From Schmidtea polychroa (taxonomy: Eukaryota), in the NCBI GenBank assembly GCA_044892525.1, contig CM097885.1, forward strand, positions 16,122,001 to 16,186,000: a stretch of 64,000 nt of DNA, given 5' to 3'. A program made the position numbers and the translations under genes. Position 1 is the first letter of the stretch, and every line of letters begins with the position of its first letter. Positions 1 through 52,532 of the stretch are shown here, piece by piece. The notes below the pieces were generated by a model. That model saw only the letters and a list, made by a program, of their open reading frames with translations, did no database searches and was not told where the DNA came from.

Positions 1-3000
1 TATTATTATTATTATTCAAAATATTATTAGTGATCTAGCGGTGACCTGGTTTTCGTTTGCCCAAAACTTAATGTTCCCACCAACATATTTTATTGATCTA
101 TAGCTCATTTATAGTACCAGCAGAACTGCGCGATCAATACCTCCAGAAATATTACGACATCTACCACCCGGGAAACAAAGCCTCAGTAGATGGATTGGGG
201 CTCCCCAGATCAGGGGCTCCCCGCATCACATATACCCCCTCCCTCCCCCGGTCTGAAAAATTTTATTTTTTAGAACGATGCCAAATATTTTTAGAACTTT
301 TACGTAATCGATGCCTCTTATTTTTAGAACGATGCCTCATATTTTTAGAACTATTACGTAATCGATGCCTCATATTTTTAGAACGATGCCTCATATTTTT
401 TAGAACGATGCCTAATATTTTTAGAACTATTACGTAATCGATGCATCATATTTTTAGAACGATGCCATATTATTGATTGATCCAGAGGGCCCCTACTTTT
501 TTTCATCCCAAAAACTAATGTTCCCGCCAACAGATTTTATTGGACGATACCTCATCTTAAAGCCCGGTAGAAGACCTTTCTAATGAGATATAAATTTTTA
601 GAACGATGCCTCAATCGATGCCTCATATTTTTAGAACGATGCCATATATTTTTAGAACGATGCCTAATATTTTTAGAACTATTACGTAATCGATGCCACA
701 TATTTTTAGAACGATGCCATATATTTTTAGAACGATGCCTAAGATTTTTAGAACTATTACATAATCGATGCCTCATATTTTTAGAACGATGTCTAATATT
801 TTTAGAATTATTACGTAATCGATGCATCATATTTTTAGAACGATGCCACATACAATGACTCATACGATGAATCATAAATTATTATTATTATTATTCAAAA
901 TATTATTAGTGATCTAGCGGTGACCTGGTTTTCGTTTGCCCAAAACTTAATGTTCCCACCAACAGATTTTATTGATCTATAGCTCATTTTAAAGCCCAGT
1001 GCGAGATTTATCTACTGATATATTATTATCGTCATTATTATTGGGAAAGATATTAACGTCCGCGCGAAAGATGTTATTTTCAAAGTTTTAATCAATATTA
1101 TTATTATTATTATTATTATTATTATTATTATTATTATTATTATTATTATTATTATTATTATTATTATTATTATTATTATTATTATTATTGCAAATATTAT
1201 TGAAAAACCTAAAATATTTTTTACACAACCCATTAACAATTATTATTATTATGATTATTATTATTATTGCAAATATTATTGAAAAACCTAAAATATTTTT
1301 TACACAACCCATTAACAATTATTATTATCAATATTATTATTATTATTATTATTATTATAATTAGTGAAAAACTTAAAATAATTTTTACACACTAAGTTAT
1401 GGGGTAGAGAATTATTATATGTTTGCAATATTCTGTGTTTGCCTTTACAGGAAGTTGACAATAAGGAGCGATAATTTTATACATACATTCTATATACACA
1501 TACCTTGTTTAACATGGTTGTATATACTCCTAGTCTATCCGACAAAATATTCTGTACCCCTATGGGTACTTGTCACTCTCAACATGTCGCAAGGGTTTTC
1601 GAGTTTAAAGCATATTATGGTTTATTAAGGTTAGTAAATAAAACTTATAACACCTACTATTTTTAAAAATATTTAAACGATAAAAATCAAGACAAGAGAA
1701 GACAAGGCAAAGTTTATGCATTTAGTATTGCCAGGCCTAATGAGCAGTGTTCAAATATCTGTGCCTGAAAGACACGGTGGATATTTGTTCGCGTCCACAA
1801 GGGTCGTCTGTGCCTCCCCCAAGTGGGGTCAGAAGAACCTGGGTATTATAGTTTTCCGTACGGAACATTACGCCTAGCATGGGTTGTCAACTACCAGCAC
1901 ATTCGAAACGTATAATTTCAAAATACATGCGTCATTGGCACTATAACCAAATTAATTAATGTTTTCACTAACACAAAAATATATTTACAGAGGCCTCCCA
2001 CTAGTTGGATTACTACCGCCCACCACGACGATCAGCTTGTAAATATATAATAATTAAGGGATAAAGAGGACCCACCCAACCCTATTATATTTAATTTACA
2101 AATTTTTCTCGCTCTTCTGCTGGTAATCTATCTCAAAATTATCATCTCTATCGGGCCATTTGATAGTGATTTCATGAAATACGTCTTGCAAATTGGACGG
2201 CGTCAACTATCATTGCTAAAATTTATATTGATTTAAAAGCAATTAACTTACAGATGTTATCTAACATTTTATCGTCACAAATTAAATTTTGTCTGACTAT
2301 TAGGTAACTGTTATTTATGGTATACTTTTTCCTTATCAATTCCCACCATAAAACACAGATACCTAAATATAATATATATATTTTAAAGAATTAATTCATG
2401 TCTTACATTAATAATAATATTCTTCAGGTATGACGAGTACTTTACTTAATTGCTAAAACATCGGTTTTTCTTGACATTCGTTAAAAGTTTACATAATTTA
2501 AGTCTGATAATTCATTTTGAAGGACACCCACAATCAGCTAATTCATTTAAAAAATCCGGAACTATAACTCCTTTAGTGTTTCACCATTGTGTCTGGTTCA
2601 TCTTCTTCATAATCTTATAATTCATGTTTTAATAAGAAATCTCTAAATCCAAAATCTATAACTCCTTTAGTGTTTCACAATTTTGTCTGGTTCATCTTCT
2701 TCATAATCATATAATTCATTTTCTTCATTACTAAGTAAAATAATTAAAATATTGTAGTAAATTCTTTATTTACTTACTTTATGGATACCAAAACGAAAGA
2801 AATAAAGTTATATGAAAAGTTTATTTAATTAATTTAAATTTAGTTATTTAAAAATATTTAAATAATTTAGTTATTTAAGCATATTTAAACATTATTATAT
2901 AGTATAATTTTATATAATATTATAATATTATAATTTTATGTATTCTAAATTTATTAATAAATACAGTATAATTTTATATAATATTATAATATTATGTATT

Positions 3001-50000: not shown

Positions 50001-52532
50001 ATTTGATGCTTTTTAGATGATTTTAGTGAATTATTTGTAATAATATGGATTAAGGGTAGAGATATAATCATTTAAGAGATTTTAAGGAATCTTGTTAGTT
50101 TGAGGTGAATATATGATCTTTAACAATTATTTATCATTAAAATACCAATTTTTAAATATTGATGTATTTAGGGGGAAAATGATTCTTTTTAGATGATTTT
50201 ATTGGAGAATTCACTTGGATATACCAATTATTGTCATTTAAATGAATTTACTGGTTTGTTAGATGTTATCATTAGTTATCTCTTTTGGAATTTAATGATA
50301 ATTATTTTTATTGTAGATTGATGACTTTGATAATTGTAATGAATTTATACTGATTTTTTAAAAATATATTGAGCAATCAGTCAATCAATTTGAGTACATG
50401 TATTACTTTTAAAAAAATATAATTAAAATTAATTTTATTTCAATTAATTTATTCAATCTAAATCAATTATCTACTAGATCTTATTTCAAAATTTTTATTA
50501 ATTTATTATCTTAATTGATTCAACTTGAATGATCAATATTTTTTTTATTTACTGGATGATTAATGACTAGAATTCTTTCTTGTCCATTAATTACATTTTT
50601 ATAATATTTATTTCGTATATTTTGAATAAATTTAAATTTTTACAATTATTTAATCAATTTTTACCTAGTTATTGATGCCTTGAGTTCAATTAATTTTTCA
50701 TCCAATTTTTCAAGTGATGAGTATTTTCTTTTAAAGATCAATTTGTTAGTACATAGTTGTTGGTTGTTAGTAGTTGGTACTTGGTAGTTGGTATCTGATT
50801 GACTTTTTAGATTTTGATAAGAAGATAGTGTATGTGATGAAGAATATTTTGTATTTGATTGCTATTATTTTTATGTGTTGTTAGTTGATTGTTGTTACTT
50901 GGTATCTAGTTGATAGTATTTTGCTGATAGTGCTTGGTAACTTGTTGTAAGTACTTGACTGATAGCGTTTGGTATCTTATTGTAAGTATCTAGTTATAGG
51001 TTGATATTTGTTAATTTCTTGATGGGTTTTGATGGTGTTTGTTAGTACTTAGTAGCTAGTTAATGGGTAGGTGGTGGTTGAGCAATCAGTCAATCAATTT
51101 GAGTACATGTATTACTTTTAAAAAAATATAATTAAAATTACCCTTACAACTAGTACCCTTACGACTAATACCCTTACAACCAGTACCCCTACGACTAATA
51201 CCCTTAGACGGTCAAAACATCCTGTCGGATAAACTCAGAGTATATATAATAAAACTGATCAATAATAAGTATTTATTGAATGCGATTTTTACTTTGCAAT
51301 AATAAGTCAGTAGTTATCATTTAAAAGAAGAATGTTTTGTAAATTAGAATTCTATAGTCTTTCATTGTAATTTAAATTATTTTGAATTCCACGTGGTGAT
51401 GAGTTGACAATTATTCATTTTTTGATGAAAATCATCATTTTTGTTAAATTTAGACATTTTGAAAAGGTTTTTCTACTGATTGTAATTAAACATATTTTTG
51501 AAGACAGATAAAAAATTAATTTAAAAAGCATTTCATAAAATACAATGATGAATATTTAGTTGATTGTAAGTAGTTAGTTGTAAGTACCTGGTTGTTTGAG
51601 AGTTAGTTAGTACGTGGTATCATGTTGTAAGTATTTGGTACTTATTTGTTAGCACCTAGTTAAAAATAATCAGTAACCGATTGTTGAGAACTGTTGAATT
51701 ATTATTATTATTATTTTGATTATTATTATTATTATTTTTATTATTATAAATATTATTATTATTATTCCATTAAAATTTTCATTTGACTTTGAAAAATATT
51801 TTATTGAAATTAACTTAAAAAATTATTCCATAAAAATTTCCATTAAAATTTTCATTAAAAATTAACTTAAAAAATTATTTCATTAAAATTATCTTAAAAG
51901 ATTTTACATTTAAAATTAACTTAAAAAAATTTTACATTTAAAATTAACTTAAAAAATATTTCTTAAAAATTTACTTTAAAAATTAACTTAAAAAGTTATT
52001 TCATAAAAATTTTCATTAAAAAATTTCAATGCTCAAACACCTTCTATTATTCCAACTTTTTGTTACTAAATTTTAAAATCTTACTTTAATTTACATATTA
52101 CATTACTTATTTAAAAATTATTACTTTACCATTACTTTACAAAATTATTACCATCGAGACCCCCTCACTATAGTCTGAAAATTCTATGCTTTTTTATTGA
52201 AGACCGCCTTTTTTTATTGAAAATATCCTGAGACCTTGCTTTTTTATTGATAGTCGGATTTTTGTATTGAAAATCCCTGGATCAATCGAGACCCCCTCAC
52301 TATAGTCTGAAAAATTCTTGGCTTTTTAAGTGAGACCGCCTTTTTGTATTGAAAAAATTTTTTTGTATTGAAAATCCCAGGACCATCGAGACCCCCTCAC
52401 TATAGTCAGAAAAAAAAATTTGGACTAAAAATCCCTGAAAGCAAAAAATGTGAGTTGCAGCAAAAAAATTTTGCAGCAGACCCCCCCCCCCACCGGGGGG
52501 TCATTGCTGCAGTACGCTCCTAACTACCTACT
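47083..52532. mobile_element. Second non-coding AGTAG-ended Maverick-like derivative
   Basis: Perfect 12-bp inverted termini AGTAGGTAGTTA; CATCGATTACGTAAT subterminal repeat as in the 1-7629 element; 48700-49700 is an inverted homologue of ~4070-4980. No TSD seen. Confidence 0.6.

Follow-up and report, generated by a model that had tools for sequence, protein, structure and literature searches.

A polar, periodic module in the terminal repeats of planarian Maverick/Polinton elements as a candidate docking site for packaging proteins

What function, if any, does a short TATA-led sequence serve that recurs in damaged Maverick/Polinton elements of Schmidtea polychroa? The question is raised by a 64,000-nucleotide stretch of contig CM097885.1 (assembly GCA_044892525.1, positions 16,122,001 to 16,186,000, forward strand), referred to here as the window. 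A sequence-only reading of the window had proposed that three elements share one motif and that this motif is a small non-coding RNA gene, a packaging or replication signal, or a target of the TBP-like protein encoded by the elements. Judged by sequence comparison, the motif, termed here the module, is a real, delimited and family-confined cis-element of a viral terminal repeat; its function is unproven, and a docking array for packaging proteins is tentatively put forward below.

The module is about 90 bases long and is present seven times in the window. With six of the window copies as queries, nhmmer returned exactly these seven window matches (E values of 4e-4 to 2e-28), all seven at the positions and on the strands proposed, and none of the six queries matched the reversed window sequence. 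By nhmmer limits, the plus-strand copies at 1521..1599 and 3461..3552 lie in internal contexts designated beta and gamma, respectively. The minus-strand copy at 5246..5340 (context delta) has a tail of repeated 15-bp units, and the minus-strand copy at 5969..6076 faces inward in the right terminal repeat of the first element, element A, after a (TAA)n tract. Another inward-facing minus-strand copy, at 12324..12423, lies at the inner edge of a family-A right terminal repeat, 1,687 bp from the end. The remaining copies are a partial one on the plus strand, with its head missing (47872..47911, context delta), and a minus-strand one without an ATG, in which the 15-bp units are amplified (51140..51247, context epsilon). 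The claim that the 15-bp unit occurs in variable number was borne out, with a spacing of 15 in 316 of the 428 intervals among those listed. The description as TATA-led fits most copies but not that at 3461, which starts with CATATAC, as do 41 of 240 heads. The three AGTAG-ended elements do share the motif; their ends are not clean, all three elements being damaged.

Genome-wide searches were made in a 781-Mb, AT-rich assembly with four large contigs. An exact 22-base core gave 7,440 matches and a degenerate 24-base head pattern gave 19,751, and the reversed control of each pattern gave none. The sequence-only reading had named an independent dispersed short interspersed nuclear element or miniature inverted-repeat transposable element (SINE/MITE) as the finding that would overturn it. 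Flanks were compared with eleven reference pieces of elements in the first 5.4 Mb of one contig. The first 100 core matches in the list fall into 63 regions there, of which 60 were retrieved; these contained 95 copies, and 35 stretches from the same repeat-rich loci served as controls. Homology to the elements was found on both sides of 89 core copies, on one side of 5 and on neither side of 1; any such homology was found in 10 of the 35 controls. The single exception lies in an arm of an 11.7-kb inverted pair and has a short element-type flank. Among 19 copies from the head-pattern set, the corresponding numbers were 10, 8 and 1, and here the exception adjoins genes for TBP and for two proteins designated o140 and o83. 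Combined, 112 of 114 copies had Maverick/Polinton flanks and the other two lay in element-like settings. Since 94 of 95 core copies and 18 of 19 head-pattern copies had at least one element-homologous flank, against 10 of 35 controls, an independent SINE/MITE was rejected, and confinement to the element family is therefore supported. The flanks of the sampled copies sort into a few fixed contexts; a facing terminus was found within the retrieved DNA for 49 of the 95 copies, the remainder being internal copies or fragments. An exact 23-base pattern had no match in metagenome contigs and none in viral contigs, and no outside relatives were found.

Four gene-carrying elements were each read over their full length as a stretch of their own. 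The host elements have long terminal repeats and genes for a protein-primed polymerase, an integrase, an ATPase, a protease and a capsid-like protein, assigned from an open reading frame scan, Pfam (integrase and ATPase) and motif reading; the capsid assignment rests on size and position, Pfam having given no capsid family. In all four elements the module is confined to the terminal repeats, with one to three copies per arm and none internal, and it sits, facing inward, at the inner margin of each of the two inverted repeats. The paired repeats L091/92, L093/94 and L095/96 include it, which makes it part of the Maverick/Polinton terminal repeat. Across 26 hand-picked gene-carrying arms, 35 copies faced inward and none outward, and the distance from the end to the first copy was 841-1,871 bp. 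AGT-type ends with a 6-bp target duplication were present in all four paired elements elsewhere in the genome; this combination was not found in the three damaged elements of the window. Furthermore, three gene-less palindromes, hereafter satellites, carry six, five and four module copies per arm, and no Pfam family was found in satellite interiors on six-frame read-through with X at stops. One measured satellite is 14.7 kb long, compared with 16.5-17.2 kb for three gene-carrying elements, and all four have 6-bp target duplications. Mosaic and fold-back Mavericks were also seen (L041, L122, L081/L082 and L102), with the A-type gene block on other ends or the TBP arm at both ends.

The outermost genes, those for the polymerase and o83, are directed outward at the module, and both end 57-360 bp before it. 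This arrangement would suit a polar roadblock or terminator that halts the outward transcripts of the last genes before an end origin, or else an auxiliary replication element; by analogy, a polar protein block would go well with the polarity of the module and the repetition of its sites. Such a role is nevertheless improbable, as the gene-less satellites keep and multiply the module at internal sites, and across lineages the module follows neither the polymerase nor the outer repeat.

The lineage distribution concerns three module-bearing lineages and a family B. Lineage A, to which the window belongs, ends in AGTAGTA. Lineage A2 has B-like outer repeats, and its polymerase is 63% alike, its ATPase 99%, its TBP 97% and its o140 91%. 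Lineage A3 has a third end type, with polymerase 72-82%, TBP 62% and o140 85% alike, and with ATPase (93-95%) and integrase (90-92%) values taken from a truncated copy, L147. Overall, the module-bearing lineages are 63-82% alike in polymerase, 93-100% in ATPase, 90-96% in integrase and 85-92% in o140; the 48-base heads of their modules are 92-96% identical, and their outer repeats are unrelated save for one 110-bp piece common to A and A3. Family B, with at least 150 TBP copies, is 84% alike in ATPase, 66% in capsid and 58% in TBP and has no o140 or o83. All 10 family-A right ends that were chosen by o140, not by the motif, had the module, and none of nine family-B ends chosen by genes had it; a tenth family-B locus had neither end nor module, and at another the module lay beyond the terminus. 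No module was seen in two polymerase families that are further removed (25-30%) and whose ends were not delimited, and a Pox_A32 search for distant families reached weak matches only. Given the pattern of likeness across A, A2 and A3 and the absence from family B, the module appears to travel with the ATPase-integrase-o140 block and to be independent of polymerase, outer repeat and TBP, which is a lead and not proof. The o140 protein itself had no Pfam or Atlas match and one relative in a set of 5.8 billion, and its structure model was uninformative (predicted local distance difference test score, pLDDT, of 35).

The same distribution bears on the proposal that the TBP-like protein encoded by the element has the module as its target. 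The TATA-like start, the presence of a TBP gene in all three module-bearing lineages and the conservation of this TBP family (97 homologues) speak for such a target, and a TBP-like gene in related viruses is named in a figure legend, the relevant part of PMC8502044. The proposal was weakened by three observations. Family B has TBP and no module; the TBPs of A and A3 differ by 38%, their heads by 8%; and a different word, TATAAAC, precedes the ATPase, o163, o121 and capsid genes in family A and the ATPase, o163 and capsid genes in family B, and occurs in none of 240 modules. This word, the candidate promoter word of the element TBP, is likewise TATA-like and found in these elements; unlike the module, it stands before virion genes in both families. 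The module thus neither consistently accompanies the TBP gene nor matches the word before TBP-class genes, and because TATAAAC is absent from modules and the module from family B, the element TBP is an unlikely reader, to be given little credence.

The internal structure of the module is regular. Its 48-base head consists of a TA tract, five variable bases and two conserved blocks, followed by units 15 bases apart, and the two blocks are 22 bases apart in 207 of 214 copies. An 11-base site, T-R-S-W-C-n-n-A-n-T-Y, recurs at multiples of 15 bases: in a set of 269 copies, some of them counted twice through overlapping loci, it stands at position 5 in 216 and at position 65 in 159, and more rarely at 50, 80 and 94, on a window background of 0.27 per kb. 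Among 35 lineage variants, changes are most numerous at the two free bases of this site (clustering, p = 0.006), position 10 showing four states and 10 changes. Where two satellite lineages share an orthologous site, their heads were identical at 44 of 48 positions, compared with 65-71% identity in long flank pieces (83-88% in two short pieces). The 100-bp repeat of the family-B end (L112:5065-5463 and L119) shares two short words with the module and has the 11-base pattern on the other strand; no nhmmer homology was found between the two, and the shared words may be due to chance.

A polar, periodic and redundant array that lies near both ends, is kept with virion genes and is multiplied in satellites of near-genome length fits a packaging/assembly docking site. 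The module may, as a tentative proposal, be a DNA docking array that marks the genome end for the element's packaging/assembly proteins in the manner of adenovirus psi; a packaging/replication signal was the best of the three functions originally guessed, yet it is unproven. The element's own proteins would dock on the periodic 11-base sites, and the binder would belong to the ATPase-integrase-capsid-o140 block and not be the polymerase or TBP. We infer further that module-bearing elements would form particles and that satellites would have gained their extra copies by competing for packaging. A more far-reaching form, conceivable but doubtful, would make the module the first sequence-defined Polinton packaging signal, that is, an array of 15-bp period read by the A-type ATPase/o140/capsid block, swapped with that block between lineages, and raised in number to 8-12 copies in gene-less palindromes of genome length, which would out-compete their helper for capsids like defective-interfering genomes. 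According to PMC5033970 and PMC12090768, adenovirus psi lies near an end, is redundant, has a fixed spacing with free bases, is bound by the packaging ATPase, competes when present in extra copies and tolerates 600-1,000 nt from the end. The module resembles the psi A-repeats in its several redundant, fixed-spacing sites with free bases and, in part, in its nearness to an end, the candidate binder being the packaging ATPase block; it differs in its period of 15, compared with 21 in psi, and in its presence at both ends, being inside the repeat.

The module lies inside repeats that resemble those of animal Maverick/Polinton elements in gene set, AGT-repeat ends, length and 6-bp target duplications; in the available portions of PMC8097293 and bioRxiv 10.1101/2023.08.22.554363, such repeats are described by length and end motifs, with no inner module common to lineages or multiplied in satellites. 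A comparable module was not found described in the accessible text of these two sources, PMC8502044, bioRxiv 697771, PMC8532177, PMC10558129 or bioRxiv 2026.01.28.702291, a scope that lies outside Repbase planarian Polintons and preprint supplements, and no cis-acting Polinton signals beyond the last few bases surfaced in the accessible parts of the literature searched. Virions of animal Mavericks had not been observed, according to PMC8097293. If the module is a packaging signal, this would point indirectly to particle formation by animal Polintons and to satellites that are packaged, and a short delimited element that follows a virion gene block across natural recombinants and is multiplied by satellites would be a concrete probe of sequence-based DNA selection.

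Several points weigh against a packaging function. Many copies lie farther from the end, at up to 1.9 kb and, for internal satellite copies, at 3-7 kb, than the 600-1,000 nt that psi tolerates, the range of 841-1,871 bp for first copies being only partly within that limit, and the adenovirus word TTTG-N8-CG occurs in 2 of 269 copies, with no sequence likeness. Related A32-type ATPases such as that of PRD1 recognise the terminal protein and not a DNA word. The module is also found on satellites whose ends are of family-B type. The A3 ATPase and integrase values derive from L147, which was placed in A3 on the basis of its TBP, the terminal repeat of this copy lying outside the sequence read. Four lineages are few, and because the module adjoins o83/o140, linkage alone could yield the same distribution. 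In addition, four gametes in 29 of 91 site pairs and a spacer diversity (22-24%) above flank diversity in contexts beta and gamma indicate exchange between copies, and exchange can keep copies alike without selection. In context beta, the cleanest one, head positions 12-26 vary by 7.6%, compared with 7.3% and 2.9% in the flanks, so that no extra conservation is evident there.

These last observations bear on the view that the module is a passenger, one of several terminal-repeat units that is spread by template switching, homogenised by conversion and without a job. The terminal repeats are composed of many other repeated units, recombination is evident both between lineages (the mosaics L041/L122) and between module copies, family B multiplies without the module, and constraint in context beta is weak. 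On the other hand, the module is the sole repeat unit common to all three lineages, the other units differing; changes cluster in the free bases of the recurring site with length kept; all ten family-A ends retain the module; and the head is better conserved than the neighbouring coding gene o83, whose DNA is only 79-82% identical to lineage A. A mere passenger is considered fairly unlikely; if it were true, the module would be ordinary repeat content.

A further possibility, regarded with some doubt, is that the terminal repeat holds in the module a core promoter for RNA polymerase II that faces inward, with a TATA tract, a start near position 29 and downstream factor sites. Its products would be long transcripts running inward, in antisense to the outermost genes or in sense to accessory genes. 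Strict inward polarity, a TATA-like block with no shared variants in five of five contexts, a distance of 15 bases from this block to the next in 188 of 221 copies, and a 5' edge that is sharp at the TATA in five unrelated contexts all favour it. Moreover, a Bcl-2-like frame lies in sense about 700 bp inward in three copies of lineage A3 and 1,382 bp inward in a fourth, and planarian Polintons gain H3K4me3 and RNA upon PIWI loss, according to PMC8532177. Conversely, in A and A2 the adjoining genes point at the module, so that no gene is led by it, and the Bcl-2-like frame has a TATA-like word of its own just upstream. Canonical TATAWAWR is present in only 65 of 240 heads, and 41 of 240 begin with CATATA. 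Of the 10 family-A ends chosen by o140, 7 carry, instead of the fixed head, a TA tract at 9-15 bases from the block that follows. Since the tract borders directly on the first block in these 7 unbiased ends, TATA spacing is not fixed there. The reported planarian initiator word occurs in 1 of 269 copies, and Polinton, TATA and initiator were all absent from PMC11410931 in a term search. If the promoter were real, its roughly 20,000 copies would provide host silencing with much inward and double-stranded RNA. The A3 frame itself (L133:2576-2887, minus strand, and L134, L138 and L142) lies between the module and o83 and matches Bcl-2 at a Pfam E value of 0.008, below the cut-off, and a 165-amino-acid orphan lies on the strand opposite to it.

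Assembled contigs from sequencing runs presumed to be RNA were compared with window 1400-5460 and with L095, and they cover the module and its flanks alike. Among the joints listed in these contigs, which show no start, strand or level, none connected the module to a downstream gene. An array of splice donors (GTA after AG or GG in the units) was rejected, as there was no supporting joint among those listed and positions +4 to +6 were poor when judged against the donor consensus. Separately, window 2617-2727 matches a 763-base, high-depth contig of this kind that continues unlike the element, possibly a captured piece of a host transcript that was duplicated in the satellite. At L095:3271, contigs of three such runs depart just before the ATPase start with sequence absent from the retrieved loci, and these would represent either a leader or a further lineage.

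A small non-coding RNA gene, either VA-RNA-like or spliced-leader-like, or a SINE/MITE could explain why the module is compact, high in copy number, sharp-edged and GC-richer than its surroundings (38% versus 30%). The consensus fold of the 35 variants had only -2.05 kcal/mol and three pairs, none with compensatory change (-0.68 on the other strand), and stable single folds (z below -2) were found in none of the 35 variants on either strand. When the A- and B-box patterns of RNA polymerase III (Pol III) were scanned among the 269 copies, no B box and one A box were found. The first T4 run was scattered from 60 to 320 or absent, so that there was no constant T-run terminator. As for spliced-leader features in the 269 copies, an ATG directly followed by GT occurred in 8 and an Sm-like word in 10-18, with no fold. 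No Rfam family reached its gathering score in the window, and positions 1400-6100 gave two matches put down to chance (E values of 2.7 and 7.8), which lay elsewhere. VA RNAs and flatworm spliced-leader RNAs differ from the module, which has no conserved fold, A or B boxes, fixed T-run or Sm site and whose ATG is not directly before GT. The likeness consists of a short GC-richer unit in a virus-like genome with an ATG near GT (PMC12582326 for the spliced-leader features). Hairpin, Pol III RNA and spliced-leader readings were rejected on the absence of the fold, boxes, T-run, donor and Sm site. The small structured RNA gene proposed at the outset is thus not supported, and, with element flanks in 112 of 114 copies, an RNA gene or SINE/MITE is highly improbable. 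A micropeptide gene was rejected as well: an ATG is present in 237 of the 269 copies and missing in 32, frame lengths range from 6 to more than 35 codons, and the DNA unit is read in different frames. Whole sub-families are without an ATG, and the earlier statement that the motif precedes no consistent open reading frame holds.

The modules of the window lie in three damaged elements. Element A (185..7629), a gene-less, non-autonomous Maverick derivative with AGTAG ends, lies inside a gypsy fragment, carries four module copies and is 84-88% identical over kilobases to a satellite (L098). Its positions 1600-3450 and 3600-5240 gave no Pfam match in six-frame read-through. The stretch 109..1383 is an inverted duplicate, the reverse of 6431-7705, and takes in 76 bp of outside flank; the left end of element A is an inverted copy of its right end, and there is no true left end with a target duplication. 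By eye, a GC-rich stretch at about 1990-2040 on the minus strand resembles a 7SL head, for which Rfam at E values up to 10 made no call.

The second element, the family-A remnant at 8440-14109, is the right part of a Maverick/Polinton, and only its right end (14109) is visible. It contains a Maverick integrase gene with Pfam rve and chromo domains (8440..9495, minus strand), a broken packaging ATPase gene (10071..10702, minus strand) with an open frame of 109 amino acids, compared with 212 in other copies, and, on the plus strand, the short TBP-like gene (10808..11272), identified by homologues and alignment. Two further plus-strand genes follow: the orphan 139-amino-acid gene o140 (11381..11800), which is present in all three module-bearing lineages and not in the family-B copies read, and the acidic 82-amino-acid gene o83 (12007..12255), the last gene, directed outward at the module. 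The outer right terminal repeat (12424..14109) has an AGTAGTA terminus. Within the integrase gene, at about 9067-9108 on the minus strand, a 42-base AT-rich in-frame insert with GT...AG ends resembles a very short intron. The third element, element C (47083..52532), is a gene-less composite with internal DNA 67-75% like element A, two unlike ends and no 6-bp target duplication; its outer terminal repeat (51761..52532) is of family-B type, two 400-bp stretches being 77-78% like the family-B repeat L119.

Outside these elements, the window contains a young gypsy element (16517-33117) with 863-bp long terminal repeats that are 99.8% identical, in which the gag frame is fused to Bcl-2-like and Monjiviricetes fusion-protein domains. 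A TRAF-like gene with RING, zf-TRAF and MATH domains is present at 41555-43117 and 62221-64000, with an inverted copy of 90% identity 18-20 kb away.

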